A stretch of 64,000 nucleotides of DNA from an uncultured Gammaproteobacteria bacterium (lineage in GTDB: Bacteria > Patescibacteriota > Microgenomatia > JALYQM01), in the NCBI GenBank assembly GCA_964403585.1, contig CAYOFQ010000001.1, positions 140,456 to 204,455 of the forward strand. Reading direction: 5' to 3'. Position 1 is the stretch's first letter, and each line of letters starts with the position of its first letter. Shown here in pieces: positions 2,862 to 41,863 of the stretch. A model generated the notes under the pieces. The model was not told where the DNA came from, did no database searches, and was given only the letters and a program-made list of their open reading frames with translations. The position numbers were made by a program, and so were the translations under genes.

Positions 2862-3013
2862 AGTTAACCAACTTTGGATTTACTACAAGCGATGTACCAA
2901 CTAATGCCACAATTACAGGAGTAACTGCAACAATCGAAGGTAACGCCACGTCTGGCGCAGGTTCTGCAACAACCTCAGGTCCAAACAGTCCTGCAAGTGG
3001 AAACGATTGTAGC

Positions 3014-5986: not shown

Positions 5987-8233
5987 ATGCGCAAAATAAT
6001 TTTAATTCTGGCTGTTTTTCTAGGCATCTTTACGGCATATGCCGTAACCACATCTCCATACCTGCAGGCAGGGGACAGTACTGAAATGGCAGCCTCGGCC
6101 ATTACCCTCGGCGTGCCACACCAGCCGAGCTACCCGTTGTACATTCTCGCCGCGCATGCGGTAACCAAGCTGCCAATACCGTATCTTCCGGACATCCCGC
6201 CGATAAATTATTTTAGATATAATATCGATCAAAATAATAAATATAGTATCTTAATATATCGAACAGGTCTTTCTTCTGCATTATTTCAGGCAGCTGCTGC
6301 CACATACTTTTTTTTAATTCTGCTCCAGATTAATAGAATCAGGGGAGGGGAGATAAGCCCGGTCAATAGTTTTGGAGCAATTCTTATTGCGTTATTTGTG
6401 ACAGCACTCTACGCGTTCTCTGAAACAATCTGGCTGTATGCTACTAAGCCCGAGGTATTCGCCTTAAACAATCTTTTTGCCATGGCATTGCTGTTCTACG
6501 CCTTACGCTGGTACACCGATAGCCACAAAGCCAAAATATCCGCCAGGTATTTTCTCCTCCTTGGACTTGCGTTTAGCCATCATCAGACAATTATTTTGCT
6601 GTTTCCAGTTCTATTCGCTATCTATCTCTTTAAAAAGCAGCAACTGGAAAATACGTCGATTCCCAGGATACTCTGGCGCTGGGTCAGCTATCCGTTTGAT
6701 CGCAAATTTAATAAATCATTCCCGTTTATGTTCTGCTTCTTTCTGGCAATTTTACCTTTTTTCATTGCCTTATGGATGCTTGCGCAAAGATATCCATTCA
6801 TCAATTGGGGCGAAGTTAGCGGTCCAGTAAGTTTAGTGCGAGCACTGATTCGTGCCGATTACGGCTCTATTGGAGCTTATCTTACAAATATCGAAAGTCC
6901 GACCGTCGCGGCCGACCAGATTCCTTTTTTTGCCCAGCACTTGTTAACCGACTTTTCTCTGTACGTAATAATCCTGGCAGTCCTTGGGACAATTATCTTG
7001 TACCGTACCAGCAAGCGCCTCTGGCTGGCATTGATGCTGTTCTTTCTCATTGCCGGACCAATTTTTATAATGTACGCCAATTTCTCCTTGGAAGGGGATT
7101 TCTCTAAGGCTACTGTCGTCCGCTTTTACATGTTACCCGAGATACCGATACTCATCTTCATGTTTGCAAGTCTTGTCACAATGTATCAAAAGATCCGTGA
7201 GCTCGATGTCAAAGACGCAATAGAATCTATCGACTACCAAAAAATCGGCACCGGCATTTTTCTGCTACTGGCTGGGGCCATTACCATTCATAGTATCTAC
7301 CAAAACAAACCCAATTTTGACAATCTTACCTACGCCTTTGCTAAAACCGCCATAGCTCAAACGGAAGATAACGCCATGATCTTAGTCACCGGAGACATCC
7401 CGAACATGGTGATGCAGTATATGCAGGCGGTCGAAGGGGAGAAAAAGAACCGCATCATATTTTCACCTGGTCAGTTTCATTTGGCCTGGTTTCAAAAACA
7501 GTTGCGCTCCCGCTATCCGACATTAAAAATCCCTGACCCGCTTCCCGGCAAGCGCTTCACCTCTCCCAGTCAGGTTATAGATGCCAATTTTGGCAAACAG
7601 CCCATCTATATTGTTACCGATTTTGTCGAAATCGACCCGCTGATTCAGGAGAAGTATGTGTTGTGGCCAAAGAATTTGCTGCTCAAAGTTGAAGCGAAAG
7701 GGGTAGATTATAAACTGGAAAAATATCTTGCCGAAAATGATGCACTTTTTCAGTCCCTTAATTTACAGGAATTCGCCAAGCTGAAGTCCCGCAAGTATCA
7801 GCTCGAATCACCACTGGTCTTTTACTATTCACGCCACTTCTACAACCTCGGGGCTGTGTTTAATACAGTCCATCGCTATCAGGATGCCATCACACAGTTC
7901 AAACGGGCACTGACAATTGACGCCGAACTGGCTGATGCATATAAGGCGCTTGGTACAATATATTATTTCACTGAAGATTTTGAACCGAAGGATCCTCAGG
8001 CTGCACTTGAATATTTATACCGCTACCTGCAAACCACTGACGGCCGGTCAATAGATCAGATCACTGCCGTCCAAAACAGCATTAATAAGATTAATGAAGA
8101 TCTCAAAAAGGCCGAGGAGGAAGAGAAGAAAGCTGCAGAGGACGATCAAAAGCCGTCCGTGGACCAGCAGGAAGCATCGGAGTCGGCAGAAAGCTCACCT
8201 TCGGCCAAATTAGAGGATGACATTAAAAAATAA
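5987..8233 (+). CDS. DUF2723 / TMEM260-like polytopic GT-C glycosyltransferase (putative protein O-mannosyltransferase-like) with a C-terminal TPR and acidic tail
   Basis: N-terminal signature TTSPYLQAGDSTEMA...LGVPHQPSYPLYIL matches the DUF2723 hallmark (xWxDxGE ... GxxHPPGxPLY). At least 10 predicted TM helices. TPR-like segment ALTIDAELADAYKALGTIYY. Confidence 0.65.
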   Translation: MRKIILILAVFLGIFTAYAVTTSPYLQAGDSTEMAASAITLGVPHQPSYPLYILAAHAVTKLPIPYLPDIPPINYFRYNIDQNNKYSILIYRTGLSSALFQAAAATYFFLILLQINRIRGGEISPVNSFGAILIALFVTALYAFSETIWLYATKPEVFALNNLFAMALLFYALRWYTDSHKAKISARYFLLLGLAFSHHQTIILLFPVLFAIYLFKKQQLENTSIPRILWRWVSYPFDRKFNKSFPFMFCFFLAILPFFIALWMLAQRYPFINWGEVSGPVSLVRALIRADYGSIGAYLTNIESPTVAADQIPFFAQHLLTDFSLYVIILAVLGTIILYRTSKRLWLALMLFFLIAGPIFIMYANFSLEGDFSKATVVRFYMLPEIPILIFMFASLVTMYQKIRELDVKDAIESIDYQKIGTGIFLLLAGAITIHSIYQNKPNFDNLTYAFAKTAIAQTEDNAMILVTGDIPNMVMQYMQAVEGEKKNRIIFSPGQFHLAWFQKQLRSRYPTLKIPDPLPGKRFTSPSQVIDANFGKQPIYIVTDFVEIDPLIQEKYVLWPKNLLLKVEAKGVDYKLEKYLAENDALFQSLNLQEFAKLKSRKYQLESPLVFYYSRHFYNLGAVFNTVHRYQDAITQFKRALTIDAELADAYKALGTIYYFTEDFEPKDPQAALEYLYRYLQTTDGRSIDQITAVQNSINKINEDLKKAEEEEKKAAEDDQKPSVDQQEASESAESSPSAKLEDDIKK

Positions 8234-8245
8234 AGCATATATACT

Positions 8246-9793
8246 TTGAATATGGATGGTGAAGAAACAGAAAGTTACTCGTCAGTTGTAGCTGAACCAA
8301 AGATCGATTATGCCGTAAAAGAAAACGATCCCAAAGCAGAGCTTCGCTCGGTTGTGGAGAGGTTCACCAGGAAATTAGCAGATAAAGATAATCCACCTGA
8401 AGCAGTAGAGACATATACGCAAGCAGCGACGCAATTCCTCAAAATAGCTTGGGAATGTGGTCAAGCCTATGAAGCAGCCGAGAAGCTCGCTAAACTGGAA
8501 GGGAAACGGGCTTCAGCCGCTGCAGATGTCCTGGTAAATTTGATGAAGGAACAATTAGGATCATCGGTTAAGTGGGATTATAGCGTGGAGTACCAGTATA
8601 AAAAATTCGTCACCGAAGCTACTGTCGCCTACAAACAAATTGAGTACCCTGATGACCGGTCAGGAACATACAGGGACCCATTCGCTGCTGTGACTGAATT
8701 GTTTGATGATAATAGTATTCTTGTCGATAGTTATAAAAGCAAAGCCCTCTGGTACAAAGGTCTTTCAGATTTCTACGCCGAGGTCGTAAAAAAATCTCCC
8801 AACCAGGGTGGAGTAGTGTACCTCAAACATCAGGAGCAGTATCAAGCTAATGCGCAAGTATTTCGGACTATGGAAAAAGAATATCGTAAGCTACGTCATG
8901 ATATTGCCTATGATGTGATGTATAGCGAAGCAGAGACAGAGGATCCTGCTCACTGGGTAATGGCTAATGCCAACGCGCTCCGTAGATTTAGGTTCGTTTT
9001 AAAGCGGCAGGATCAGGCACTCTCTGAGCAATCACAGGCGGAAACAATGCCCAGTTTGATTTCAGATAAGCCACCGGTCCACAGTACAATTGATCATAAA
9101 TTAATTGACGAGATCGAAGCGGGTAAACACGAACTGTCAGGTGCGGTAAGAACCAAAGCTCTCGTTGAATTATTTTCTCTCCTGAACAATATAAAAGAAC
9201 AACCCCGCGGCAAATGGATTTATTTTTATGCGGGGGAGGATGGTGTTGTTACCTCAGGATTATTAACCAACGGTGTCGAAGAAGTTATTACCGTCACGCC
9301 AAATAATAGAGCAGATTATTATCAAAAAGTTGAAGAGAAAACCCGTGCTTACTCAGGAAAAGATAGTATTGAGATAACCGCGCTATCTACCACCACCGAA
9401 GAGTTCGCTCAGACGATGCTAGCAATGAAGAGAGGAGAATTGCCAAATATACCGGCCGAACAACTTGCCCAATATCAGGATATCTTTGATGCGCTGCAAA
9501 ACTATCAAGTGCAGGGAATTCTTGCCATACGACCGGTGTTATACGAAAAACGCAAACTTTCCGCAGATATTCATCGAAGTCGTGCACTCAATCCCAGAGG
9601 CGATACTGCACGCGCCTACGACGCTACTTCAGTGAATCTTTTATATAAGTTCGCCCGTCAATTCAAAATTCCTTTAACATATATTTATCCGGGCGATAGC
9701 TACATCTCGACTATGTACCGGGACGGAGCCGAGAATAACCGCTTTGACGTAATTGCTGGCTCCTATGATGGCGTCTTACTCACTACTGCATAA
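8246..9793 (+). CDS. Hypothetical soluble protein (515 aa) with no recognisable domain, embedded in the glycosyltransferase cluster
   Basis: Long ORF with good coding texture, start 13 bp after the upstream stop. No TM segment and no motif I can recognise. Confidence 0.5.
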   Translation: MNMDGEETESYSSVVAEPKIDYAVKENDPKAELRSVVERFTRKLADKDNPPEAVETYTQAATQFLKIAWECGQAYEAAEKLAKLEGKRASAAADVLVNLMKEQLGSSVKWDYSVEYQYKKFVTEATVAYKQIEYPDDRSGTYRDPFAAVTELFDDNSILVDSYKSKALWYKGLSDFYAEVVKKSPNQGGVVYLKHQEQYQANAQVFRTMEKEYRKLRHDIAYDVMYSEAETEDPAHWVMANANALRRFRFVLKRQDQALSEQSQAETMPSLISDKPPVHSTIDHKLIDEIEAGKHELSGAVRTKALVELFSLLNNIKEQPRGKWIYFYAGEDGVVTSGLLTNGVEEVITVTPNNRADYYQKVEEKTRAYSGKDSIEITALSTTTEEFAQTMLAMKRGELPNIPAEQLAQYQDIFDALQNYQVQGILAIRPVLYEKRKLSADIHRSRALNPRGDTARAYDATSVNLLYKFARQFKIPLTYIYPGDSYISTMYRDGAENNRFDVIAGSYDGVLLTTA

Positions 9794-9843
9794 CTATGCA
9801 AGCTTGACTATCTTCATTCGAAAGCTCTACACTAAAGTACACT

Positions 9844-10707
9844 ATGCTCGATGATCTTCGTGGCTATTTTATGATGCTCTGTTACTCGGTTATTGAAACC
9901 CGGGTTGCTCGGGCGGTACTCGGCTGTTCGGTAATCATTGTACTGAGTTTCATATCACTACGGTTATTTGGCGGGTATGTCAATGCACCGCGCCCCACGA
10001 TTTTTATTACTTCCCCTCAAGCCGACGCGCTGGTAACAGACAAGCAAATACTGGTGAAGGGTAGGGTAGTACCACAGGACAGTGAAGTAACGGTTAATGG
10101 TCAGAAAGTTATCTCCAACGGTGACGGGACATTTTCCCAAATGGTCCAGGTCGCTGCCGGAGCCAATGTTATTAAATTTGAAGCCAGTTACTATGGAAGA
10201 AAATCCGGAGCTTTGCATACTGCTACCCGCATCTTAACTGAGGAGGAAAAAGCAGAGCAGACCGCCGCACTGCTAAAAGAAAAAGAAAAAGTCAAAGCCG
10301 ACGCGAATCAGCTCGCTACAGCCTTGCAAAGTGATGTCCTGGGCACTAGTGTCTCACCCAGTCCCCAACCGACCGCGACACCGGCACCGTCTTTACCGGC
10401 CGAAACAGATATTGATAAATTCAAACTGCCGCTCGGTGGCATGATCATGACTCAAAACGAAGTTAAGAAAAATGGTGAAACGATTCTTACCGGAATATTT
10501 AAAAATACCACCGGCAAAACACTACGCTGGGTGAAGATCAAAGCCGATTTCAAAAATACTGCCAATAGTCTGATAGACTCTAAGACCGGAGCGATCACGC
10601 TACCCGATCAGCATCTTGCTCCGGGTACCGAAGTAGAGTATACCGTACCGGCGACTATCAGTACCTATAACGATTTCGAGCTCAGGGTAGCATATGAGGC
10701 GCTATGA
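9844..10707 (+). CDS. Membrane-anchored protein with a probable Ig-like/beta-sandwich ectodomain and a Pro/Thr linker. Function unknown.
   Basis: N-terminal hydrophobic anchor, a beta-rich segment (VTDKQILVKGRVVPQDSEVTVNGQKVISNGDGTF), PT-rich linker. Stop overlaps the downstream start. Confidence 0.45.
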   Translation: MLDDLRGYFMMLCYSVIETRVARAVLGCSVIIVLSFISLRLFGGYVNAPRPTIFITSPQADALVTDKQILVKGRVVPQDSEVTVNGQKVISNGDGTFSQMVQVAAGANVIKFEASYYGRKSGALHTATRILTEEEKAEQTAALLKEKEKVKADANQLATALQSDVLGTSVSPSPQPTATPAPSLPAETDIDKFKLPLGGMIMTQNEVKKNGETILTGIFKNTTGKTLRWVKIKADFKNTANSLIDSKTGAITLPDQHLAPGTEVEYTVPATISTYNDFELRVAYEAL

Positions 10708-13163
10708 AACGCATCGTACCATATCTTATAATCATTCTCTCCGTCATTATTTTCTTTCCTAAAATTTTCTTTGCCGGTCATACCTTTATCTCTTCCGGCA
10801 TGGTTTCTACCGACTTGTATTTATTTAACTATCCGCTGAAGAGTCTTATGCATCAGACCATGCTGCAAGGCCGTGGGATTCCCTTGTGGACCGATTTAAT
10901 AGGCAACGGGTATCCAATCTTCGCCGAAGGACAAATGGGCGCGTTTTACCCGCTGCACTTGCTTTTCTTCGCTTTGCCATTCTCCACAATCCATCTTTTT
11001 AATGCGAATCTTATGCTTCACTATATACTTACCGGTATATTTACATATCTTTATATAAAAAATTGTATCAAATTATCACAAAGAGCATCAGTACTGGGAG
11101 CCTTTATATTCACTTTCTCGGGATATATGCTGACTCATTTACACCAGGTTAATATTATTCTTGAATTAACATACTTTCCGTTAAATTTACTTATTGCAGA
11201 GACCATAATTAAAATAAACCATGACACAAAACGATCAAAACTGGTGCTGAGTTTCTTAATACTCACACTCAGTTTATTTCTACAAATGACTGCCGGCCAC
11301 ATCGAAATGGTTTATTACAATCTTCTTTTTACCGGAATCTATGTCGTAATTCGCTTCTTTTTTGACCCAACGACCAGAACTAAAGTAGGCTCGAAGATTC
11401 TGCTATCTGTTACTGCTTTGCTGGTTACTACCATGCTGGCCTTACCACAATTATTCGCAACCTACGAGCTGGTTAAGTTCTCTCAACGCGAGTCCGGCAT
11501 TTCGTACGAATCAACCACCGGAACACTTTGGCCAATCGAGACCTTAATACTTTTTATAAATCCCAAAGCCTATGATGTTTATCGAGCCGAACCGGGGTAC
11601 AGTCCAAATAAGGCCGAGACAGTCAATATTGGCGCACTTTATCCGTATGTTGGAATCATTCCGCTACTCTTAACTATCTTTGCTATTTCCGGAATCTCTA
11701 AGAAAGAATCAATCAGTATCGCCGGTGAGTTGCCACGGAAAATTTGGACTGCTACTTTCTTAACGCTCCTGGTCTTTACGTATCTCTATGCGGTTGGCAG
11801 ATCAACACAGTTATTCTCTGTTGTCTGGGAAGTTATCCCGGGGATGAAGTTCTTTAGATTCCCGGTGAAAGCCATATATATTATTGAATTTTGTTTAGCT
11901 ATTTTAGCTAGTATTGGTTTACAGAAAATTGAAGAAAGTATTATTAATAAAACAAAAAACAATCAAACAAAAATTACCCAAAAAAGGCAATTATTACACA
12001 ATAAAACCGACGAAAAAATTAAGGCGGAAGAGGGGGTGCAAGGGAATAATGCGGGAAAAATTTCTTTAGCAACAATAGTAACTGTTCTGATAATTTCAGT
12101 CTGTTTTCTCGATCTGTGGGTCTTTAACCGGCCCACCCAGCCAACTATACCTGCCTCGGACTGGCTCCAAACTCCGGACTTTGCTGAGTATATAAATAGT
12201 CAGGAGTTGGATTGCAATTGTCCTGCTCAGGCAGGCTTCCGGAATTGGCGCAGCTACTCACACGGCACCAACAATATTGACTATACCCGTATCTTCGACT
12301 TCCCGCTGCAAAAAGACCTGCAAAATATCCTGCACATGGACTTTAACATGATCCACAATGTTGCGCTGAATAGAGAATGGGCAGTATTATTTCTTCAGCG
12401 GCAGACACTGCTCAATCGATTTAATACCCAGATCGATTTTGACACCGGCGTGCTCACTTTGCCGCCGGAAATGAAAAAGTCATTAGATCTTCAGTCTGTC
12501 CGCTATCTGATATCCGATCTTAAAATTGACGACCCCAATCTTGAACTGGTAAAAACGCATCAGTTCTCATCCAAGGTCAACCATGTCATTTTTATTGCCG
12601 GCTCAACCGACGCCAAATACTTTCCAACTGACCATGCCTACTTATACCGTAATAAGTCATACTATCCGAGGGTGACCATTACTCCGCAATCGCAGGCAAT
12701 CTATCTGACCGCTCAAGACAAGCAAGCCGGCAATATTCTCCAAACCGTCCTCTCTCCGGATTTTGATCCTGCCAAACAAACGATTATTGAAAAAAGCGAA
12801 ACTGTCTCTACTGCTGCCCAACAGTCGGAAACATCAATAAAAGCAGACTATCAAATTCTTTCATACACCGACCAGGATATGGAAATCCAAATCAACACCG
12901 ATCAGCCCGCGTACTTTACCCTTGCCGATACATATTATCCCGGCTGGACCGCTACTCTGGATAACCGGGAAGTCGAAGTCCTTAAGGCGAACTACGCCTT
13001 CAAGTCTGTTGCTGTTCCCGCCGGCTCACACCGGCTGCGCCTAAGTTTCACTCCCACACAATGGAATGTCACCCGAGTTATCGTACTCGCTGGATGGAGT
13101 GTCATAGCAACCGGGAGTATTTACCTGCTAATCAACTTCATAAAATCAAAGAAAAGAGTATAA
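10704..13163 (+). CDS. YfhO-family polytopic membrane glycosyltransferase (GT-C fold)
   Basis: N-terminal motif LWTDLIGNGYPIFAEGQMGAFYPLHLLFF. C-terminal YYPGWTATLDNREVEVLKANYAFKSVAVPAGSHRLRLSFTP. Many TM helices, 819 aa. Confidence 0.6.
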   Translation: MKRIVPYLIIILSVIIFFPKIFFAGHTFISSGMVSTDLYLFNYPLKSLMHQTMLQGRGIPLWTDLIGNGYPIFAEGQMGAFYPLHLLFFALPFSTIHLFNANLMLHYILTGIFTYLYIKNCIKLSQRASVLGAFIFTFSGYMLTHLHQVNIILELTYFPLNLLIAETIIKINHDTKRSKLVLSFLILTLSLFLQMTAGHIEMVYYNLLFTGIYVVIRFFFDPTTRTKVGSKILLSVTALLVTTMLALPQLFATYELVKFSQRESGISYESTTGTLWPIETLILFINPKAYDVYRAEPGYSPNKAETVNIGALYPYVGIIPLLLTIFAISGISKKESISIAGELPRKIWTATFLTLLVFTYLYAVGRSTQLFSVVWEVIPGMKFFRFPVKAIYIIEFCLAILASIGLQKIEESIINKTKNNQTKITQKRQLLHNKTDEKIKAEEGVQGNNAGKISLATIVTVLIISVCFLDLWVFNRPTQPTIPASDWLQTPDFAEYINSQELDCNCPAQAGFRNWRSYSHGTNNIDYTRIFDFPLQKDLQNILHMDFNMIHNVALNREWAVLFLQRQTLLNRFNTQIDFDTGVLTLPPEMKKSLDLQSVRYLISDLKIDDPNLELVKTHQFSSKVNHVIFIAGSTDAKYFPTDHAYLYRNKSYYPRVTITPQSQAIYLTAQDKQAGNILQTVLSPDFDPAKQTIIEKSETVSTAAQQSETSIKADYQILSYTDQDMEIQINTDQPAYFTLADTYYPGWTATLDNREVEVLKANYAFKSVAVPAGSHRLRLSFTPTQWNVTRVIVLAGWSVIATGSIYLLINFIKSKKRV

Positions 13164-13170
13164 TCCAGGT

Positions 13171-13512
13171 ATGAACAAAGTTGGAACATTTAATGTCGCT
13201 GTCGCAGTCTGTATCGAAAAAGGGGATAAAATTCTCATTACGCAACGCTCACTCAAACGAGATCATGCTCCGGGCGAGTGGGAAGGAGGTATTACCGGCA
13301 GGATCGACCAGGGAGAAACCTGTGAGGAAGCTGCCCACCGTGAAGTTAAAGAAGAAACAGGACTCGAAGTAGACTTAATTGCTCCGTTCCATACCTTTCA
13401 CTTTTACCGGGGTACTGAGAAAGCTGAGCATATTGGTATTAGTTTCTGGGCCAAATACAAAAGTGGTATCAACTATGAACTCTCTCCATCAGGAAATTCT
13501 CGAACTGCTTAA
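13171..13512 (+). CDS. Nudix hydrolase (small)
   Basis: Nudix box GRIDQGETCEEAAHREVKEETGLEV (GX5EX7REVXEEXG). Confidence 0.7.
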   Translation: MNKVGTFNVAVAVCIEKGDKILITQRSLKRDHAPGEWEGGITGRIDQGETCEEAAHREVKEETGLEVDLIAPFHTFHFYRGTEKAEHIGISFWAKYKSGINYELSPSGNSRTA

Positions 13513-14194: not shown

Positions 14195-14198
14195 AAAG

Positions 14199-14855: not shown

Positions 14856-14859
14856 AACT

Positions 14860-15435: not shown

Positions 15436-15436
15436 T

Positions 15437-15895
15437 ATGCGAACAATCAACCGAACTATCGTCTCCGCCTTATTAATTTCGCAGGATAATAAGCTCTTTA
15501 TGGGTAAAAAAGATCCGAAAGGTGGTGGAGTGTATAGTGATTGCTGGCACATTCCGGGTGGAGGAATAGAGACAGGAGAAGATCAAATAGCTGCCTTAAT
15601 TCGCGAAATTAGCGAAGAAACCGGCATTGACATCTCCCACCTTCCTATCACGCTAGTGAGTAATGACGGAACAGGGGAGTCAGAAAAAACGCTTCAGGAA
15701 ACAGGGGAGACGGTCTTGGTCAAAATGCAGTTCAATGTTTATAGGGTAAATCTTTCCGAACCGGCCGAAAGTATACCAGTGCAGTTGAGTGACGATCTGG
15801 TGGAATACCACTGGTTCGATAGTACCAAATTAGATCAAGTTAAATTAACTCCGCCCTCGGTTGAATTATTTAAAAAACTTGGCTATATAGCGTAA
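15437..15895 (+). CDS. Nudix hydrolase
   Basis: Nudix box GGGIETGEDQIAALIREISEETGI. Confidence 0.7.
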   Translation: MRTINRTIVSALLISQDNKLFMGKKDPKGGGVYSDCWHIPGGGIETGEDQIAALIREISEETGIDISHLPITLVSNDGTGESEKTLQETGETVLVKMQFNVYRVNLSEPAESIPVQLSDDLVEYHWFDSTKLDQVKLTPPSVELFKKLGYIA

Positions 15896-15897
15896 CT

Positions 15898-16536: not shown

Positions 16537-16543
16537 TCTGTAC

Positions 16544-17086
16544 ATGCAACAAGTTACCTTGGAACTTACTTTGACCGGATACATCGGCAATCTTCGAAGG
16601 GATCGGCATGCAGTTCTTATTCCGCAATACCCTGACGGGAGATTTCTTATCGGTGAAAAAAAATACTTGTACCCGCCTGGGATTTACCGCCTTATCGGCG
16701 GCGGGGTCGAAGCAGGGGAAACTCCCGAAGAAGCAATCATTCGCGAAGCTGCAGAAGAACTTGGTATTACTATTGACTCAAGTGAAATAATCCCCTTGGT
16801 GGAAATTAAAACCGACGCTACAACCCCGGACAACCGGTATAGTTTTATTACGTATATTTTCTTGTATAAATTATCGCCGAATGCCCAAATCACTCCCGCC
16901 GACGACTTATCCGGCGTCAAAATAATGGCTCTGGAGGAAATACCTGAACTTGTTACTAACTACACCAATCTTAAAGATGATGATATTTTCAAAGATGGAG
17001 AGTATCAACACTCCTGGGGAGACTACGGCAAAATCTATGGGCCTATTCACCGGATCGTCTACGAACTTCTAAAGGCACGCACTTAA
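16544..17086 (+). CDS. Nudix hydrolase
   Basis: Nudix box GGGVEAGETPEEAIIREAAEELGI. Confidence 0.7.
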   Translation: MQQVTLELTLTGYIGNLRRDRHAVLIPQYPDGRFLIGEKKYLYPPGIYRLIGGGVEAGETPEEAIIREAAEELGITIDSSEIIPLVEIKTDATTPDNRYSFITYIFLYKLSPNAQITPADDLSGVKIMALEEIPELVTNYTNLKDDDIFKDGEYQHSWGDYGKIYGPIHRIVYELLKART

Positions 17087-17883: not shown

Positions 17884-17922
17884 ATATAAGTAGTATTGCA
17901 AAGTCCATTCAAATTTGCAAAG

Positions 17923-19920
17923 ATGCTTGCTATGAGACACCTGCCACTTCTTCCACCACTCGTTCTGTTCTGTTTCTTCTTTTCGCTCTACCTCTTTACC
18001 ATGCCACCGACAGTATACTGGCAGGATGCCGGCATCTATTTGTCTGGGTTGTATGTTGGGGGGAATGTGTACCCACCAGGGTTCCCGCTATATATGGTGT
18101 TTGGCAAAATATGGACACAGATTATACCCACGGAGCTTTTTACTCAAAAAGTCCATGCCTTCTCAGCTTGGGCAGGCGCAATTTCGAGCGTGTTAGGCTA
18201 TGTCATTACCATGGAATTTATAAACAGTAAAAGTACTCTGTTTAGAAAGAAAAAGGTATTACAAGGGAGCAATATTGAAGGAGAAAGCATTGCAGGTAAA
18301 GTCGATCCGGTCGACAGTAAACCAATCGGTAAACAGGTGGCCGCAATTGTTTCCGCACTATTAATTGGACTCAATTTTAATTTGTGGGCCCAGGCCATCA
18401 ATGCCGAAGTATACGCGTTACACGTATTAATCTTTTCTTGGATAGTATATTTAATCATACTATTAGGAAAAGAGGGGAGAATCGAAAAAGAAATAAACTC
18501 AAAACAAAAGAGGATAGTTATTGTCATAGCAATAATTTATGGATTGTCATTTGCTAACCATCCCATGACCATTGTTCTGGCACCGGTATTCATAGGTATC
18601 GCTTTTTACCAAAAAAATATTTTCTACCACACCAGATTACTTGTAATCGCCGCATTGCTTTTCGGAATATCCGGAGTCGGGTTCTATGCGTATCTGCCGC
18701 TTACGGCCAATACACACCCAATCATCAATTGGGGCAATCCAAACAATGTGAGCAGATTTATTAAGCATGTTACCGGTGAAGCATACGTAACGGGAGAACA
18801 AAGTTTTGTTTTCACCGACCTTACAAGATACAAAGCTGCACTGGAGGAGTTCACCTGGGAATTCGGCTATACCGGATTAGTACTTGCCTTAATCGGATTT
18901 GTATTATTAACTAAGAGCGATCGATTCTTAGCAGCGCTTAGTGCAGTAATTATTATTTTTCACCTCATTTTTGCTGTATTATATAAACAAACTACCGAAT
19001 ATAACTCCTGGTTATTACCGGCGCATATGATACTCGCCATACTAATAGGATACGCGGTATATGGAATATTTTCTGAGCTAAGAACTAATCTCCAGGGAAA
19101 AACGTATACACTGCCAATACTCGGACTGGTAAGTACCATATTGTTTACCTCATTTATCATCCCGCATTGGACAGCAAATCTCAATGAGCTCAACCGTAGC
19201 GCATATTATTATGCGGAAGATTTCGGCCGGAATATTCTTGGGAATTTGGATCCCAATAGCCTCATTATTATGACCGGGGATCAGGAATCATCCACCGTCA
19301 TGTACTTGCAAACGGTAAAACAGTTCCGAACTGATGTACTGGCTTTCAAAAACATTGAGGTAGATGAATTGCAAACCGCCGAAGGTCGTGCTGAGCTTAG
19401 CAGAAGATACCCCGGTCTCATAGTTCCACCGGAAAATACAGACTCCGAACAGGTAAAAGACTCTTCACGGTACCTGAACCGGTTAATTGACGCCAATATT
19501 TCCAGTCGCTCAGTCTACCTTATGACCAAAAGCCTTTTTGCACTGGATACAAAATATGGACTTATTCCGGCTGCAGCCATGTATAAAGTTGTCCCGTTAA
19601 ATTGCACAGACTGCAATACAGATATTGATCTGAAATACTGGAAATTTACATTCCATGACCCGAACTATTATCAAAAGAAGGAACGGCCGTTAATGTCGCT
19701 TAAGGATGCCAGTGCTCCGGGAGGAACACGACGAGTGCAGTATATTCAACACATGATCAATTTTGAGCTGCAGTCCTGGAAAAACCTCGGCGATTATTAC
19801 TACCTGAAAGGGGAATGCAAAAATGCTGTCGACAGTTATAATAAAATGGTTAGGATTAATAAAAATATATTCAATGAATTACCTCAAGTTAAGGAAAATA
19901 GTACCGCGTGTTACAGGTAA
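17923..19920 (+). CDS. DUF2723 / TMEM260-like GT-C glycosyltransferase (second paralog). ATG 17923 is preferred over TTG 17896.
   Basis: PPTVYWQDAGIYLSGLYVGGNVYPPGFPLYMVFG matches the DUF2723 signature. Polytopic. Confidence 0.65.
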   Translation: MLAMRHLPLLPPLVLFCFFFSLYLFTMPPTVYWQDAGIYLSGLYVGGNVYPPGFPLYMVFGKIWTQIIPTELFTQKVHAFSAWAGAISSVLGYVITMEFINSKSTLFRKKKVLQGSNIEGESIAGKVDPVDSKPIGKQVAAIVSALLIGLNFNLWAQAINAEVYALHVLIFSWIVYLIILLGKEGRIEKEINSKQKRIVIVIAIIYGLSFANHPMTIVLAPVFIGIAFYQKNIFYHTRLLVIAALLFGISGVGFYAYLPLTANTHPIINWGNPNNVSRFIKHVTGEAYVTGEQSFVFTDLTRYKAALEEFTWEFGYTGLVLALIGFVLLTKSDRFLAALSAVIIIFHLIFAVLYKQTTEYNSWLLPAHMILAILIGYAVYGIFSELRTNLQGKTYTLPILGLVSTILFTSFIIPHWTANLNELNRSAYYYAEDFGRNILGNLDPNSLIIMTGDQESSTVMYLQTVKQFRTDVLAFKNIEVDELQTAEGRAELSRRYPGLIVPPENTDSEQVKDSSRYLNRLIDANISSRSVYLMTKSLFALDTKYGLIPAAAMYKVVPLNCTDCNTDIDLKYWKFTFHDPNYYQKKERPLMSLKDASAPGGTRRVQYIQHMINFELQSWKNLGDYYYLKGECKNAVDSYNKMVRINKNIFNELPQVKENSTACYR

Positions 19921-22241
19921 TAATCATGACCAAACTTAAATCGATTTTTCCCATAGTAATACTGCTTTTTATTGTCTGTACCGTATTTAGTCCATATCTT
20001 TTCGGCTATATCGGAATAACGCCTAATGTCGGTACTAACGATAATGTCGATTTACAAGTTCCGTTTCGGCAAGTACTTCAGGAAAGCCTTCTGAAACGCC
20101 GCCTTCCGCTATGGGAACCACGAATCTCTACCGGTTTTCCGTTATTTGCCGAGGGCCAAATCGGTGCACTATATCTACCGAATTTACTATTCGCCGCCTT
20201 ACCGGTTCCTGCCTATTACTCGGTGAGTTTAAGCATTGTTTTTGCCGTATTCTTGTCCGCAGTAAATATGTATTTCTTTTTAAACGAATTCTTGAATAAT
20301 CGGGGAGAGGAACATTCTTCCCGTAACCGGGTATTCGCTTTAATTGGCGCAATATTCTGGTCTCAGGCAGGAGTTCAGTTCAATCATACTGCCCATCTTA
20401 ATGTACTGAATGTCTTTTCCTGGTTGCCATTTGAACTCTGGATCATAGAACGACGCTTAAATGAAAAAGATTCATATTTTAAAACGGTCGGGCTGTTAGC
20501 GTTGCCGGTCATGCTGCAAATCTTTGCGGGACACCCTCAATTCGCTTCGTATTGCTTCTTGTTTATCGCACTCTACTGGTTTCTGAATCAGGTCATGTTG
20601 AAAACTACCTTAAAATTTAATGCCCTGCTGCTCAATGGACTGGTAGTCGGGGGGGCCATACTGTTAGGCATACTTCTGGCCTCGGTCCAATTATTCCCAA
20701 CGGTTGAATTTACGTTTAATTCCACTCGCCAAACCGGCCTGGATGAAGAATCAATTAATTTTCTTGCCTTTAGAGTGCAGGATTTACGGACCCTGGTAAC
20801 GCCGTTTTACGATTTCTCCTATGAACCGCGTACCCCGGCCAGATTGGATAGTGTGAGCTGGCCTTTTGATGAGCGGTACAGCTATTTTGGGCTTATACCG
20901 CTATCTTTAGCGATGCTGTCAATTGCCTTTGTCATCAGAAAACGTCAGGCTTTGGTATTTTTAATTTTAGGAGTAATGTTTCTGTTGCTCTCCTTGGGGA
21001 ACCAGACGCCGATCGGGGGGTTACTTAAAATACCACCGTTGAACTTATTCCGTATTCCCACCAAGTTCACCACGTTAGCTCAACTCAGCTTTGTTATTCT
21101 GGCAACCTACGGGTTAAAGAGCATGATTGAATTATTAATAAGACCAAAAGGGGAGAGTATCGCTAAAAACGTCCGTATCGGGCTGGCGGTGCTGGTTATA
21201 CTCACAAGTTTGGATACCGGCACTAAACTATATAAACTCTATCCGATCCAGAAAGGCGAATGGTGGTACGAAAAGCCTGAAACCGTTAAAGTATACGAAA
21301 AAGAACTGCAGAAAAATCCTCAGGGCAAAATAATTGGCTACCAGAATTATCGCATTTTTGGCCAGGACTATAATATCCAAATGCATAAACAGTATTTAGA
21401 ACAGGATCCAAAACTATGGGATACGTTGCAAATGCAAGTCTTTAAAAATAACCGGGCCATTTTGCCTGCCTTTGATATGTTAACCTATGATGTTCCACTT
21501 GTAGACAATGCGGTAAACTCAGCGGGATTAAAAGTAAAATGGTATTCACAAATCGAAAAACAAATTTTCTTTGCACCAAGTATTCCGGCTGATAATAACA
21601 CGGTTGATTATAACGATCAGTACTGGAAATTTTTACGGTTAACCGGGACAAAATATCTGCTGCATAATGACAATTTGTCGTTGAAAAACGTTGAACTAGT
21701 GGGAAAAACAAACTATACAACCGGACAGGATCAAATTGCGATATATAAGCTTAAAAATCCGCTGCCTTTTATACATACACCTCAAAATATTCATAAAGTT
21801 GACGATGAACAAACCTATCAAGCCGTTTCCGGAATACAGTTTAATCCGGCAACAGAAATAATTATTCCCAAAACTAATAGTCAACAAGTTCATTTTAATA
21901 CTAATAGCAATCCAACAGAAATTTCAGTGAAACAGCCGGTTCCTGAACAGTTACAAATTAATGTAACAAATGCATCGCCAACACTTATATTTATAAGTCA
22001 AACATATTTTCCTGGATGGACCGCCACGGTTGACGGACAATCGGTGCCGGTAATTCGCGCCAATCATGCCTTTCAGGCAGTATCCATTCCAGACCCTGGG
22101 ACCCATACTATTGAACTTCAGTACCAACCCCAAAGTCTTCGTATCGGGCTGTATATAACGACGGCTGCCTTAGTGGTGTACATTGGCATCCTTATTTTTG
22201 ACACGATCGCTCATAAAAGCCGACCAAATACTCAGCCATAA
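19908..22241 (+). CDS. YfhO-family membrane glycosyltransferase (second paralog)
   Basis: LWEPRISTGFPLFAEGQIGALYLPNLLF and C-terminal TYFPGWTATVDGQSVPVIRANHAFQAVSIPDPGTHTIELQYQP. Confidence 0.6.
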   Translation: MLQVIIMTKLKSIFPIVILLFIVCTVFSPYLFGYIGITPNVGTNDNVDLQVPFRQVLQESLLKRRLPLWEPRISTGFPLFAEGQIGALYLPNLLFAALPVPAYYSVSLSIVFAVFLSAVNMYFFLNEFLNNRGEEHSSRNRVFALIGAIFWSQAGVQFNHTAHLNVLNVFSWLPFELWIIERRLNEKDSYFKTVGLLALPVMLQIFAGHPQFASYCFLFIALYWFLNQVMLKTTLKFNALLLNGLVVGGAILLGILLASVQLFPTVEFTFNSTRQTGLDEESINFLAFRVQDLRTLVTPFYDFSYEPRTPARLDSVSWPFDERYSYFGLIPLSLAMLSIAFVIRKRQALVFLILGVMFLLLSLGNQTPIGGLLKIPPLNLFRIPTKFTTLAQLSFVILATYGLKSMIELLIRPKGESIAKNVRIGLAVLVILTSLDTGTKLYKLYPIQKGEWWYEKPETVKVYEKELQKNPQGKIIGYQNYRIFGQDYNIQMHKQYLEQDPKLWDTLQMQVFKNNRAILPAFDMLTYDVPLVDNAVNSAGLKVKWYSQIEKQIFFAPSIPADNNTVDYNDQYWKFLRLTGTKYLLHNDNLSLKNVELVGKTNYTTGQDQIAIYKLKNPLPFIHTPQNIHKVDDEQTYQAVSGIQFNPATEIIIPKTNSQQVHFNTNSNPTEISVKQPVPEQLQINVTNASPTLIFISQTYFPGWTATVDGQSVPVIRANHAFQAVSIPDPGTHTIELQYQPQSLRIGLYITTAALVVYIGILIFDTIAHKSRPNTQP

Positions 22242-22930
22242 TCAAAAAAGCCGTTAAAACGAACTACAGGGGCTCGACATTAAAAATGAGCCTAAATAAG
22301 CCAAAAACAGCAATTTAAGAGTAGGAATTTAGTCATAAATGTACTGCAGAGAGAAATCCCGGTCAGCGAAAGGCGAATAACCTGCACAGCCGACCAGCAC
22401 TTCGATTTATTAATCATTTCACCGTACCTAAAAAACAATAAGAATTACTGAACTGCGTAATCCGCAGAGTCTCTTTATGCGCATGTCGCACAATATAGAA
22501 AAGCGCGCAAAAAAAATCTGGGAGTAGTTCTGCGTTGATGCGCGTGTAAGATTTTAAACAAACGGCTAAACAGCTGCCTTAAGCCTACGCTCAAAATGAG
22601 AAAAAAGATAGGGAAGTTGAACTCAAATTTATCACCAGGAAGAGGGTAATGCTAAACCGGGTTTTCACGGCGTGAAAAAGGCGAGTGGCAGAGAGTTTGA
22701 GCGTACAGGGGTAGAAAATCTACTCATATTAGAGATGACTTAAATATGTGGATAACTTTGCAAATGGGAAGGGTGATATAGTTTGCACATGATATAGTCT
22801 GCACAAAGCCCAAAACACAATAGATCCGGAGAAGTGTTTAGATATACCAGGTAGTAGCGAAATAAACAGGCTGGCATTTTACCGGTAAAGAAAAAATTGA
22901 GTAATGTATTTTTTAATTTGTCTACATCAG

Positions 22931-25300
22931 CTATGAAGCAGCCACCATTCCCCTGTCAGCTCTCCCCTTTTTTATCTGCCTAAGTATGAAATATGTAAGT
23001 AAGGTGACCAATGTCGCAAAAGAAATCCCACTGCCCACATAGAATGCTATAGGCTCATAAGCCCAGATAACGGTATGGCTGCCTGGTGGCACCTTAACAG
23101 CGCGCATTACTAAATTAACCTTTAGAATAGGGTTTTCTTTACCATCAATATATGCTTTCCATCCGGGATAATAGGTATCCGAGAAAACCAGATACGCCTC
23201 ACTCCTACTCTCTGTCTTCATGGATACCATCGTAGACTGGTAATCAACAATCGATACGGAATGCGCTTTATTAAAGGAAACTCGGTCAAAATTACTCGAA
23301 GAGCTCGCTTCTTTCTCATCACTCCTCCCTATTGTCTCGCTGTATGCATATTTTTCCGGAGCAATCGCCGGATCTAATAGTTCGGTAAGGACAGCATCCG
23401 GTTGAGCACGCTTACGAATATCTGAAACAAAGAATGCCCGCGGCTGTACGAATTCATTTTTGTAAACCTGAAGCGGCACACCAAAGGAAGAATCAAGTGT
23501 ATACGATTGTGAAAGTAAAAAGTTCGGCGACGGAAAATCACTAAAACTATAAATATACTTTACATTCCACAGACCCAGGATCCTGCTCAGATACGAGCCC
23601 GGTAAATTGTTTTTGGTGAGAAAGTTCTCCAGAAACGCCCGCTCTTTAAGCCCTAAGCCGCCTTCAAACCATCCGCGATCGGTAAAGGAATACATATGAT
23701 AAAGCGCTGCGAAGTTCCCCGGAATAGCTTTTTGCAGCGAAAAGATCGCCTTCTCTCCCTTCTTCCAACCCAACGCTCCAAACGGATTCTGCATATATTG
23801 TGTCATCGGGTAAATACGATACAAATAAGAATCCTTTTTCTGTAGCTCTTTCACAGATTCCGGTACTGCCAGATACTTCCCTACCGGGTAGTAACCAATG
23901 TACTGATCTGCAAAAACCGAAAGATCAAGGAGAATAACTCCCAGTATTAAAATAGTTGTAACTGTAGGAGAAAAAGGCCATGAAAAAACATAATCGCTAC
24001 TATCCTCTTTTCTTAGATTCCCCTGTATGCGACTTCGCTCGAGCCGCTGGAATAATCGCTCTATTGCCCATCCGGCCAGAACACTCAATGACAATAATGT
24101 CAGTAAGTTAAACCGCGTCGGAAAACGGAATAAAGTCATTCCTGGGATGTTGTAATACAGTACCGAAAATAGAAAGGAGTAACTTCCCATGGAGAGAATA
24201 AAAAACAAAACAGCCGAAAGTACATAAAACCGGAAGTAATAGTTAAAAAGGAATTCACCTGTTTTTCTGTTTCGGATACGGAAAAACAATAGAACAACCA
24301 CGAGGACCAAAGGTAATAATCCTATGTACAGAACATTCTCCCACCATATACCGTCAAGCTGAATATCACCCCGGTAACTGCCTGTGGCAGGATTCCCTAA
24401 AAAGAAAGGCGCAAATAAAGTCGCCAGAAAATGAGGCCGTAAGGGATATGCCGTCGCCACTTCATAGGAAAAATCTTGTCGGGAGGACAAAGCCGTCAAC
24501 TCGTATGTAGGTAATAACTGGGCAGCTGCCAGGCCAATTGCTACTACCCCGCTAATTCCTACGCCAATAATCGTCTTAAGAAGTGCTAGTGTCAGCGAAG
24601 TACTCGCCACCTTCTTCCGCGACTGCATATATAACAGGAATAGTTCACCTGAGATTAGCCATAAACACATAATTACCGAAAAGTAGAACATATGCGGGTG
24701 ACCGGCCAAAACTTGTAGACCCCAAACAATTCCCAGCCACACAAACCGGGAGAGATTAAAATCGGTAAAATACCGGCGTAGTAGCCAAAAACACCAGGGC
24801 AAATATGCAGCAACCGCAATCATATTAATATGTTTCAACCGTGCCACAAAAAAGGACCCAAACATAAAAATAATCGCACTGGCCAACGCACCTCGCTTCC
24901 CCATCAACGGCAATGTCCGTGCAAATGTATACATTCCACACCCTGCTATCATAAAACTAATCAATATGCTGTAGTTAAGGCTTAAAACAGGAGAAAGAAA
25001 GGCAAGGAGGATGTGTGGCGGATACAAAGGACCGCTCTGACCTTCGGCTAAAACAGGAAACCCGTTCGAAAGGTATGGGCTCCATAACGGAAACTGGCCA
25101 TGCGTATATGCTTCGTGCAAAATAGATTTGAAAGGTAAATGCAGCTCTAATAGATCCGAACCGGAAAAGTCACCCAAGGCAAAAACATTCTGCCCAAGCA
25201 CAACCGGCCGGAATAATACCAGCGGCAAAAATATCAGAAGAATATACGGAAAATACCGACTGTGTACGATCCCGAACAACCGTGCTTTCCAACGAGACAT
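22931..25300 (-). CDS. YfhO-family membrane glycosyltransferase (third paralog). Start at the internal ATG (MSRWKARLF...).
   Basis: LWSPYLSNGFPVLAEGQSGPLYPPHILL and C-terminal DTYYPGWKAYIDGKENPILKVNLVMRAVKVPPGSHTVIWAYEP. Confidence 0.6.
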   Translation of the reverse strand: MSRWKARLFGIVHSRYFPYILLIFLPLVLFRPVVLGQNVFALGDFSGSDLLELHLPFKSILHEAYTHGQFPLWSPYLSNGFPVLAEGQSGPLYPPHILLAFLSPVLSLNYSILISFMIAGCGMYTFARTLPLMGKRGALASAIIFMFGSFFVARLKHINMIAVAAYLPWCFWLLRRYFTDFNLSRFVWLGIVWGLQVLAGHPHMFYFSVIMCLWLISGELFLLYMQSRKKVASTSLTLALLKTIIGVGISGVVAIGLAAAQLLPTYELTALSSRQDFSYEVATAYPLRPHFLATLFAPFFLGNPATGSYRGDIQLDGIWWENVLYIGLLPLVLVVVLLFFRIRNRKTGEFLFNYYFRFYVLSAVLFFILSMGSYSFLFSVLYYNIPGMTLFRFPTRFNLLTLLSLSVLAGWAIERLFQRLERSRIQGNLRKEDSSDYVFSWPFSPTVTTILILGVILLDLSVFADQYIGYYPVGKYLAVPESVKELQKKDSYLYRIYPMTQYMQNPFGALGWKKGEKAIFSLQKAIPGNFAALYHMYSFTDRGWFEGGLGLKERAFLENFLTKNNLPGSYLSRILGLWNVKYIYSFSDFPSPNFLLSQSYTLDSSFGVPLQVYKNEFVQPRAFFVSDIRKRAQPDAVLTELLDPAIAPEKYAYSETIGRSDEKEASSSSNFDRVSFNKAHSVSIVDYQSTMVSMKTESRSEAYLVFSDTYYPGWKAYIDGKENPILKVNLVMRAVKVPPGSHTVIWAYEPIAFYVGSGISFATLVTLLTYFILRQIKKGRADRGMVAAS

Positions 25301-25357
25301 ACTACCAAGTATAACATTCGGTGGAGTACAATAGTCGAAATAATATATACTTTCTTT

Positions 25358-36359: not shown

Positions 36360-36469
36360 ACTTTTACTGTATAGTAGAACGCAACACCAGGCATATTGCA
36401 ATAAGAAAAATTAGAACTTCCTGAATTCACCCGACATAGTGTACAATGACCAAAATAAGGAACGCATTT

Positions 36470-37546: not shown

Positions 37547-37550
37547 GAGC

Positions 37551-38225: not shown

Positions 38226-38243
38226 ATTCGGTATAATGCTTTT

Positions 38244-40889: not shown

Positions 40890-40898
40890 AGGAATCGT

Positions 40899-41843: not shown

Positions 41844-41863
41844 CGGTTATATATACTGGAAGA

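Follow-up and report, generated by a model that had tools for sequence, protein, structure and literature searches.

Background

The closest described counterparts of the locus analysed here come from four kinds of system. Human TMEM260 is a TPR-bearing protein for which protein O-mannosyltransferase activity has been shown (PMC10214176). In Streptococcus mutans, the YfhO-like proteins PgfM1 and PgfM2 glycosylate the Thr-rich repeats of Cnm, a sortase-anchored adhesin with which they are co-transcribed (bioRxiv 10.1101/2022.10.10.511621). CsbB/YfhO and GtlA/GtlB belong to three-component systems for the glycosylation of lipoteichoic acid (LTA) (PMC5836110, PMC8035078), and the XrtG/Firmicu-CTERM loci of monoderm Firmicutes follow the gene order signal protein, exosortase, two glycosyltransferases (PMC12854382). 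Here we analyse a 64,000-nucleotide stretch of contig CAYOFQ010000001.1 (positions 140,456 to 204,455; hereafter the window), in which genes for glycosyltransferases of the GT-C fold lie between and around a giant surface-protein gene and xrt, a gene of the exosortase/archaeosortase family. We propose, with chances that we judge to be about even, that the locus is a conserved surface-glycoconjugate assembly system in which the GT-C enzymes O-glycosylate the ectodomain of the giant protein and xrt cleaves its C-terminal tail.

Enzymes of the TMEM260-like, YfhO-like and PMT_2-like families are common in uncultured bacteria, and a GT2 glycosyltransferase together with a GT-C enzyme is a classic pairing. 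To our knowledge no substrate has been assigned to any bacterial TMEM260-like protein and no function is known for one, and we know of no settled answer as to what exosortase-family enzymes attach their substrates to. Literature searches on exosortases together with Patescibacteria or the candidate phyla radiation (CPR) returned no description of this system, and in the literature searched no account was found of the xrt family or its fusion substrates.

A conserved island of GT-C genes beside a giant surface-protein gene

An open reading frame (ORF) listing and Pfam/NCBIfam scans recovered every gene named in the initial annotation of this DNA in its place. The features of the first cluster are given below (TM, transmembrane; S/T, Ser/Thr; aa, amino acids); the gathering scores are 24.2 bits for PF11028, 28.5 for PF09586 and 26.1 for PF13231.

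1-5842, plus strand: giant gene, C-terminal ~1,946 aa, an S/T-rich Kelch beta-propeller array; the gene begins upstream of the window
5705-5842, plus strand: sorting tail of the giant protein (VVPER, a hydrophobic helix with two Pro, RRR, a short basic end)
5987-8233, plus strand: T260a, TMEM260-like GT-C with C-terminal TPR (PF11028 88.2 bits; TPR_1, TPR_11)
8246-9793, plus strand: 515-aa soluble protein with no Pfam or NCBIfam family match
9844-10707, plus strand: gdB, membrane-anchored beta-sandwich protein of 287 aa (Glucodextran_B-like and FxLYD domains)
10704-13163, plus strand: Y1, YfhO-like GT-C copy 1 (PF09586 39.7 bits)
17896-19920, plus strand: T260b, second TMEM260-like GT-C (PF11028 78.8 bits; first ATG at 17923)
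19908-22241, plus strand: Y2, YfhO-like GT-C copy 2, the copy chosen for structure modelling (PF09586)
22931-25300, minus strand: Y3, YfhO-like GT-C copy 3, on the same strand as xrt and downstream of it (PF09586 52.1 bits)
27128-27721, minus strand: xrt, exosortase/archaeosortase-family protein of 197 aa with ~5 TM helices (TIGR04178 38.3 bits, cutoff 23)

Synteny and orthologs were compared across this first cluster, from the giant gene to xrt. Orthologous islands were found in GCA_964535655.1 (L001/L004/L006), two MDV metagenome-assembled genomes (L003, L086), CAZGHS01 (L005), GCA_964462765.1 (L087), JGI 3300043411 (L088), JGI 3300071358 (gene list only) and the metagenome contig L007; the nearest named homologs are labelled 'Patescibacteria group', with one labelled 'Chloroflexi'. 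The first half of the recurring order comprises the giant gene, T260a with its TPR, the beta-sandwich gene, Y1 and variable genes, and the second half comprises a K+ channel gene on the minus strand, T260b, Y2, Y3 on the minus strand, further variable genes and xrt, again on the minus strand. The same order occurs in at least six genomes and partly in the distant L043, so that the cluster is held in related genomes while the genes that intervene vary.

The initial annotation had spoken of a dense island. Eight GT-C genes do cluster in the window, but they form three sub-clusters parted by variable housekeeping genes (NUDIX hydrolases, an HAD phosphatase, an S51 peptidase, a K+ channel, histidyl-tRNA synthetase (HisRS) and others). 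Eight among about 55 genes seems to us far more than would be expected, and the real evidence against chance clustering is the conservation of gene order in relatives.

Coupling is tight at several points. T260a directly follows the giant gene in four genomes (the window, with a 144-nt gap, L004/L006, L087 and L088), and in L088 the stop of the giant gene overlaps the T260a start. Within the window, the stop of the beta-sandwich gene overlaps the Y1 start and the end of T260b overlaps the Y2 start; the beta-sandwich-Y1 pair is kept in L003, L004, L005, L086, L087, L088 and the distant L043. The gap between xrt and Y3 is only 16 nt in L004, a Y3-like gene directly follows xrt in L043, L047, L019, L044, L057 and L059, and L043, in which xrt is 47% identical, carries a compact xrt-Y3 / Y1-beta-sandwich-T260a block. 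In approximately 14 metagenome loci, the first 1 kb or so downstream of xrt encodes YfhO-like, PMT_2 or Pfam-less 9-11-TM proteins, in most cases immediately next to it.

Two genes of the window interrupt this arrangement. The gene for the 515-aa protein is absent from that site in every relative and is therefore a lineage-specific insertion, probably outside the system, and a VanY-type D-Ala-D-Ala carboxypeptidase gene (25262-27124, plus strand), absent from all relatives, splits the xrt-Y3 operon. The start of Y3 was placed near 25300, although its ORF is open to 25432, because the orthologs are 787-807 aa long.

Some further features adjoin these genes. The convergent Y2 and Y3 are separated by a 690-nt gap (22242-22930; approximately 500-615 nt in relatives) that holds only two short overlapping ORFs, opposite-strand or out of frame, no Rfam family and one weak terminator-like hairpin (22453-22467). 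Divergent beside xrt in every close relative is a gene for a 109-aa Phage_holin_4_2-like membrane protein (27752-28081, plus strand; 61-82% identical), followed in most close relatives by a gene for a 123-aa protein (28125-28496, plus strand; 78% identical). Against NCBIfam, the products of these two genes and of those at 8246-9793, 37446-38225 and 43638-44291 gave only chance-level matches.

The giant Kelch gene and its predicted synthase domain

The 5.8 kb upstream of T260a had been annotated as S/T-rich Kelch surface proteins. The Kelch region is S/T-rich (25.8% S+T over 1,946 aa, compared to 9-18% in the other proteins checked in the two clusters), but the plural does not hold, as this is a single gene, predicted to encode a synthase fusion with an exosortase-type tail. 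The first Kelch frame is open from base 3 without a stop, and the gene therefore begins upstream of the window. Reading proceeds in frame 3 to ~2757 and in frame 2 from 2759, the change falling at ~2755-2758, and in the second frame, open from 2759, the first possible start codon lies 85 codons downstream. The ortholog P0095 reads through the junction ('..SSNK' followed without a break by 'TAGSASGTNW..'), and at this point the window DNA has an A3 run where the ortholog has A4. Since the orthologs are colinear through the junction and the runs differ by one base, the two Kelch ORFs are one gene with a 1-nt homopolymer frameshift.

Sequencing or assembly error, strain heterogeneity or phase variation could each account for this frameshift. 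The giant gene is frameshifted at homopolymers in two independent assemblies, the relative L006 having two other frameshifts, in a C7 run at ~3700 and a G4 run at ~1840, while we noticed none in the adjacent genes, each alignable with its orthologs over nearly the full length. An alternative genetic code was rejected because the break is a change of frame and not an in-frame stop, and the other genes read normally in table 11. Programmed -1 frameshifting appears unlikely, as A AAT AAA C does not conform to a canonical slippery heptamer.

A search that used the last 310 residues as query, without a profile, retrieved intact orthologs of 2,250-3,422 aa, and those of 3,134-3,422 aa reveal the synthase fusion. 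Residues 1458-3419 of P0335 align with aa 1-1945 of the fused window protein in a single block at 50% identity, and P0335, P0336 and P0340 have ~1,350-1,460 additional N-terminal residues comprising two helix-turn-helix (HTH) modules, TM helices and a GT2 domain with the motifs DDSTDE, DADF, TED and RQRQRW. The solved relatives of this GT2 domain are cellulose synthase BcsA and chondroitin synthase, and precomputed Pfam matches on the intact orthologs place Glycos_transf_2, Glyco_tranf_2_3 and Glyco_trans_2_3 ahead of the Kelch repeats. The motifs of processive GT2 enzymes (D,D / DxD / TED / QxxRW, with flanking TM helices) are present in P0335, P0336 and P0340 as well as in the proteins encoded next to xrt. 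The synthase domain was read in these orthologs, the corresponding part of the window gene lying in the 4.4 kb upstream of base 1; by ortholog alignment, the 5.8 kb seen here encodes the ectodomain of a predicted cellulose-synthase-like GT2 fusion. The presence of a synthase domain brings in a glycopolymer as an alternative acceptor for the GT-C enzymes.

In many of the synthase fusions the GT2 domain is preceded by an N-terminal transposase-like HTH module (HTH_Tnp_1, HTH_28) or by two of them (P0335, P0336, P0340; L067 4290-9998; L043 1942-4446; L009, L037, L084). HTH modules in front of a membrane-embedded GT2 are an odd combination for a polysaccharide synthase.

The sorting tail and its presumed mini-exosortase

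The giant protein ends in VVPER TLMLALLIPLLPGLVF YNG RRR, a tail that is conserved in P0095, P0335-P0340, P0343, P0345 and P0346 and that in the window occurs on the giant protein only. Its layout resembles that of PEP-CTERM, while two of the tails scanned alone matched no NCBIfam sorting-domain model, including PEP-CTERM TIGR02595, at E <= 10.

xrt passes the TIGR04178 family signature, and its match to Pfam Exosortase_EpsH is weak (21.9 against a threshold of 25.7). It falls in no named subfamily (XrtA-Y, ArtA-E, CrtA-C), with scores of 29.2 for XrtX (cutoff 170), 25 for XrtG (102.75) and 23.6 for XrtY (160). Across 35 sequences at 43-89% identity, residues C107 (in WNCIGWQS), R151 and H171 do not vary; we take conserved Cys, Arg and His in TM segments to be the catalytic residues of ArtA and the exosortases. 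With 73-90% identity in relatives, xrt is the most conserved gene of the region. A structure model of the protein (predicted local distance difference test, pLDDT, 82.9) gave nothing at E <= 0.001 when compared with the PDB by Foldseek.

The metagenome scan yielded 392 relatives of xrt. The tripartite tail is also found on 44 ORFs that adjoin xrt homologs in these loci, with the consensus [IV]xVPEx, a helix with Pro and an R/K run. In 35 of the 61 informative loci, those with enough upstream sequence, the tail-bearing ORF ends at the start of xrt, often with an ATGA overlap. A synthase domain, 39-56% identical to that of P0335, is present in 22 of the 25 tail ORFs that are not cut at the start of the locus; the other three are two minus-strand ORFs running to the end of the locus and one ORF of 181 aa. 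Against NCBIfam, these xrt-adjacent synthases match PgaC, CelA and NodC and, weakly, the XrtP- and XrtG-associated glycosyltransferases. The synthase stays the same across most xrt loci, where the ectodomain is short or of another kind. One locus, L028, encodes xrt with a Kelch giant that bears the tail. On these comparisons, the general module is a putative synthase with a variable ectodomain and a VPE tail, plus a dedicated mini-exosortase. The lineage of the window has a giant Kelch array as its ectodomain, with the GT-C island placed between the genes of the fusion and the mini-exosortase. We presume that xrt is the processing enzyme for the VPE tail.

Two xrt paralogs, either adjacent in tandem or separated by a few kb, occur on many metagenome contigs (L009, L021, L025, L028, L034, L053, L067, L068, L081), and in some of these, e.g. 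L009, each xrt comes after its own tail-bearing synthase fusion.

GT-C enzymes: families, fold and paralogs

The classification of the paralogs as GT-C enzymes is borne out by Pfam, by homology to a solved structure and by a fold model. T260a aligns with the solved human TMEM260 (9rql) at E 3.5e-18 over aa 8-567 and T260b at E 3.4e-13, so that both copies combine a PF11028 score above threshold with homology across the GT-C module. D52, which has been singled out as the likely catalytic residue of TMEM260 (PMC10214176), aligns with D30 of T260a ('AGDSTE') and with the Asp of T260b 'WQDAG'.

All four YfhO-like copies score 39.7-52.1 bits against PF09586, but the match covers only the last 70-90 residues (profile positions ~743-835 of 835), and the fold was therefore checked directly by structure modelling. 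Among the 94 listed relatives of Y2, most have a precomputed PF09586 match. The AlphaFold2 model of Y2, built on a 37-sequence alignment (pLDDT 88.9; predicted template modelling score, pTM, 0.92), is helical up to ~aa 444, followed by a mixed alpha/beta domain (447-739) and a last helix at the C-terminus (742-771). Together with hydropathy, it displays the YfhO architecture of an N-terminal multi-TM module, a large extracytoplasmic domain and a single C-terminal TM helix. The GT-C hallmarks, a polytopic N-terminal module with the GT-C fold and an acidic residue in the first extracytoplasmic loop, are present, D45 of Y2 being invariant in 37 YfhO-like sequences. Structural neighbours of the model include Pmt4 and Pmt2, and by sequence neither the YfhO profile nor P1 (see below) has a solved relative in the PDB. 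PgfM2 is the only named NCBIfam model matched by Y2 and the better of two matched by Y3. From the fold, we infer that the sugar donor of the GT-C enzymes is polyprenyl-phosphate-linked.

The remaining GT-C genes lie in the second cluster of the window:

36446-37546, plus strand: cytoplasmic GT4 glycosyltransferase of GT-B fold, at the start of the cluster (PF00534 69.5 bits)
38244-40889, plus strand: Y4, YfhO-like GT-C copy 4 (PF09586 48.4 bits)
40899-41843, plus strand: soluble GT2 glycosyltransferase of GT-A fold (PF00535 84.5 bits)
42119-43645, plus strand: P1, PMT_2 copy (PF13231 35.7 bits, above the 26.1 gathering score)
43638-44291, plus strand: 217-aa protein with ~5 TM helices between P1 and P2, overlapping both neighbours; no family match
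44288-45943, plus strand: P2, PMT_2 copy (PF13231 24.5 bits, slightly under 26.1)

The GT4 matched no specific NCBIfam equivalog. P1 and P2 are 30% identical over 439 aa (E 4e-47), and the best NCBIfam match of each is a weak one to Agl23. They had been described as PMT_2/GT39-like, of which the PMT_2 match stands, with P1 above and P2 just under the cutoff. Membership of GT39 does not follow, since Pfam detected neither a PMT (PF02366) nor an MIR domain in either protein and the pair has no solved sequence relative. From its position, the 217-aa protein between them is a candidate small flippase or a subunit of the GT-C pair.

The initial annotation also saw unusual redundancy among the paralogs and asked whether they arose by recent or ancient duplication. 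Within ortholog groups, identity is 46-69% among close relatives and 35-40% to the distant L043, compared to 19-30% between paralog groups (31-35% in a few local matches). Y1, for example, is 24% identical to Y2 over its full length, and its own ortholog group stands at 49-66% (38-40% to L043); the T260b group stands at 49-60%, and Y4 is 22-33% identical to Y1-Y3 in local BLAST alignments. The copies are ancient rather than recent, individually maintained and not redundant, since they are 19-30% apart and each has its own conserved ortholog group. This separate conservation fits distinct steps.

Sugar-donor supply

A GT2 that could make the polyprenyl-phosphate-sugar donor had been proposed at 40899, a suggestion that we could not sustain. 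The best PDB relatives of the protein encoded at 40899-41843 are chondroitin synthase (1.5e-12) and ppGalNAc-transferases; its match to dolichol-phosphate mannose synthase (DPMS) is 7.8e-5 and limited to aa 4-92, those to ArnC and PgfS are weak, and hydropathy identifies no TM helix. On this pattern of best matches and the lack of a TM helix, it was rejected as a lipid-linked donor synthase of the DPM1/GtrB/CsbB/ArnC type. Two relatives do encode a DPMS-like GT2, of 227-234 aa, in the interval from xrt to Y3 (in the JGI contig Y3 follows it immediately), which gives the classic pairing of a GT2 with a GT-C gene. The 234-aa GT2 of L005 has the matches expected of a polyprenyl-phosphate GT2 (DPMS 3.2e-23, ArnC 4e-14, GtrB 1.7e-9).

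Proposed mechanism and alternatives

At the centre of the proposed system would be the giant membrane protein, with cytoplasmic HTH modules, a cellulose-synthase-like GT2 and TM helices, which would display ~2,400 aa of extracellular S/T-rich Kelch propellers ending in the VPE-helix-Arg-rich tail. xrt would recognise and cleave this tail, removing its helix. At the outer face of the membrane, the GT-C enzymes may draw on sugars linked to polyprenyl phosphate, with Ser and Thr residues in the ectodomain of the giant protein as the likeliest acceptors; the first sugar would come from the TMEM260-like enzymes, and YfhO-like enzymes would extend it or add more. Their genes stand in conserved pairs (TMEM260-TPR with the beta-sandwich protein and YfhO; TMEM260 with YfhO; xrt with YfhO and, in relatives, the DPMS-like GT2). 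That the TPR-bearing T260a is coupled to the giant gene, and that the ectodomain is S/T-rich, speaks for protein O-glycosylation, and a protein acceptor fits two precedents, TMEM260 and PgfM1/M2. As to the claim that this is a dedicated surface-protein or cell-envelope O-glycosylation system, the GT-C classes and the conserved cluster uphold it, while its substrates are still a matter of inference.

Several points weigh against this proposal. Each of its steps is drawn from comparison of sequences and models and not from biochemistry. Where YfhO, CsbB and GtlB enzymes have been characterised, their acceptors are teichoic acids rather than proteins (PMC5836110, PMC8035078), and with a polysaccharide-synthase domain in the giant protein itself a glycan acceptor is just as readily available. 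In the window the giant gene carries a frameshift, and the MDV lineage (L003, L086) keeps gdB-Y1 and T260b-Y2-Y3-xrt without a giant gene or T260a at that site. Most metagenome xrt loci have no GT-C gene nearby, many of these loci being short. Finally, the window contains no recognisable polyprenyl-phosphate-sugar synthase, and tblastn of the window with the DPMS-like GT2 of the relatives found no homolog; the donor synthase must therefore lie elsewhere in the genome.

The alternative that survives best, which we regard as possible though clearly less probable than O-glycosylation of the giant ectodomain, is that the GT-C enzymes decorate an extracellular polysaccharide or a teichoic-acid-like polymer, a candidate being the product of the giant protein's own synthase domain, and that the Kelch ectodomain serves as scaffold or adhesin rather than acceptor. 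The canonical role of YfhO is glycosylation of LTA or wall teichoic acid (WTA) (PMC5836110, PMC8035078), the intact giant orthologs carry a BcsA/PgaC/NodC-like GT2 with D,D / DxD / TED / QRxRW, the XrtG, XrtP and PEP-CTERM/EpsH systems are associated with polysaccharide glycosyltransferases (PMC12854382), and it is the synthase that stays constant where the ectodomain is short or different in most xrt loci. However, both TMEM260-like genes show homology, across the entire GT-C module, to an enzyme for which protein domains are the only known acceptors (PMC10214176), T260a and the giant gene's 3' end are coupled, the ectodomain is unusually rich in Ser and Thr, and YfhO-like PgfM proteins do act in protein glycosylation (bioRxiv 10.1101/2022.10.10.511621).

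It is also conceivable, but in our view improbable, that the GT-C pairs serve unrelated substrates (surface proteins, lipids, wall polymers) and that their nearness reflects inherited synteny in a small genome rich in GT-C genes. The housekeeping genes that interrupt the island vary between relatives, the MDV-lineage genomes lack the giant gene and T260a at the site, the second cluster (36446-45943) lies 11 kb from the first, and the paralogs are ancient and divergent, all of which would suit such a loose neighbourhood. It accords poorly with an order kept at 46-69% amino acid identity in at least six genomes and partly in L043, with the stop/start overlaps of the giant gene and T260a (L088), gdB and Y1, and T260b and Y2, and with GT-C-type genes after xrt in unrelated metagenome loci.

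We think it most unlikely that the frameshift makes the giant gene a pseudogene and the island a relic, for although the gene is broken at ~2755 in the window and at two different points in L006 while its neighbours align nearly in full and without noticed frameshift, all three breaks fall in homopolymers (A3/A4, C7, G4), as is typical of assembly error or phase variation, the sequence past each stays open and conserved, other genomes have the gene intact, at 2,250-3,422 aa, and no GT-C gene is broken.

Returning to O-glycosylation of the giant ectodomain, the linkage, in several genomes, of a TMEM260-like gene with the 3' end of one particular S/T-rich giant gene provides a concrete and testable enzyme-substrate pair, and the one-to-one pairing of xrt with a synthase fusion, frequently with GT-C neighbours, offers a simple system for the question of exosortase acceptors. 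Should the organism be an episymbiont of the Patescibacteria type, a glycosylated propeller protein of such size would be an obvious candidate for host attachment. A bolder and rather speculative extension, to which we give little weight, is that the locus is a self-contained machine for a surface fibre or sheath, in which the giant protein would make a polysaccharide with its N-terminal synthase and display an O-glycosylated Kelch ectodomain of ~2,400 aa, xrt would join the C-terminus covalently to that glycan or to a glycolipid, and the three GT-C families would supply decorations. If true, this would define for the first time the acceptor chemistry of an exosortase-family enzyme and be a candidate basis of surface or attachment structures in Patescibacteria-like ultrasmall bacteria.

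Other genes in the window

NUDIX genes are unusually many for 64 kb, with five direct Pfam matches (one of them a double domain) and one inferred via its L086 ortholog (13171-13512, 15437-15895, 16544-17086, 30532-31401, 34447-34983 and 49998-50546). The gene at 33459-34127 (minus strand; 222 aa) has weak matches to histidine racemases (HisR, CntK) and adjoins the HisRS gene (32238-33449). At 58365-63539 (plus strand), a bacterial alpha-2-macroglobulin (A2M) of 1,724 aa contains a Hint/intein-like insert at ~aa 828-960 (Pfam Hom_end_hint, PT-HINT, Intein_splicing), placed between the bait-region and A2M domains. An Rfam scan of the whole window detected no RNA family, and a tRNA search found none.

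Comparison with known systems

The locus behaves like a combination of the Pgf, TMEM260/TMTC, CsbB/YfhO and XrtG systems and is a member of none of them; its scores against PgfM2, XrtG, XrtX and the XrtG/XrtP-associated GT2 all lie far below the cutoffs.

In the Pgf system of S. mutans (pgfS, pgfM1, pgfE and pgfM2, co-transcribed with cnm), YfhO-type GT-Cs stand, as here, beside an S/T-rich, C-terminally sorted surface protein, several GT-C paralogs are needed for full modification and a GT2 serves as partner (bioRxiv 10.1101/2022.10.10.511621). However, the matches to PgfM2 are weak and confined to the C-terminus (25-36 bits, cutoff 1500), the window encodes neither a GtrB-like PgfS nor a PgfE epimerase, and the anchor signal is of the exosortase type instead of LPXTG/sortase. 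The present locus further differs in its additional TMEM260-like and PMT_2-like enzymes and in the fusion of the substrate to a synthase.

With the eukaryotic TMEM260 and TMTC1-4, the locus shares homology over the whole GT-C module, the Asp equivalent to D52 and the C-terminal TPR of T260a (PMC10214176). The window proteins are, by contrast, bacterial and only ~20% identical, and the IPT domains that are the eukaryotic acceptor were not found here, the neighbouring protein consisting of Kelch propellers.

To the three-component CsbB/YfhO and GtlA/GtlB systems the link is the YfhO family (PMC5836110, PMC8035078), along with the logic of a cytoplasmic GT2 and an extracytoplasmic GT-C, two relatives having a DPMS/ArnC/GtrB-like GT2 beside Y3. 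The window, by contrast, lacks teichoic-acid genes, a GtrB-like GT2 and any recognisable GtcA/GtrA flippase, and it associates four divergent YfhO copies with a sorting enzyme and a giant protein.

The actinobacterial and fungal PMT enzymes (GT39) resemble the locus in the GT-C fold, in the PMT_2 model matched by the genes at 42119 and 44288, and in the presence of Pmt4 and Pmt2 among the structural neighbours of the YfhO-like model. Unlike them, P1 and P2 have no PF02366 or MIR match and no solved sequence relative, and a weak Agl23 match is their best.

The XrtG and PEP-CTERM systems offer a parallel in layout, with a signal protein, an exosortase-family protein and glycosyltransferases in order (PMC12854382). 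Shared as well are the conserved Cys, Arg and His of a small enzyme with several TM helices and a tail made of a motif, a helix and a basic cluster. Here, however, xrt falls far below the cutoffs of the named subfamilies, the tail is unmatched by the NCBIfam sorting models, the downstream enzymes are of GT-C types, and the protein that bears the signal is itself fused to a GT2 synthase.

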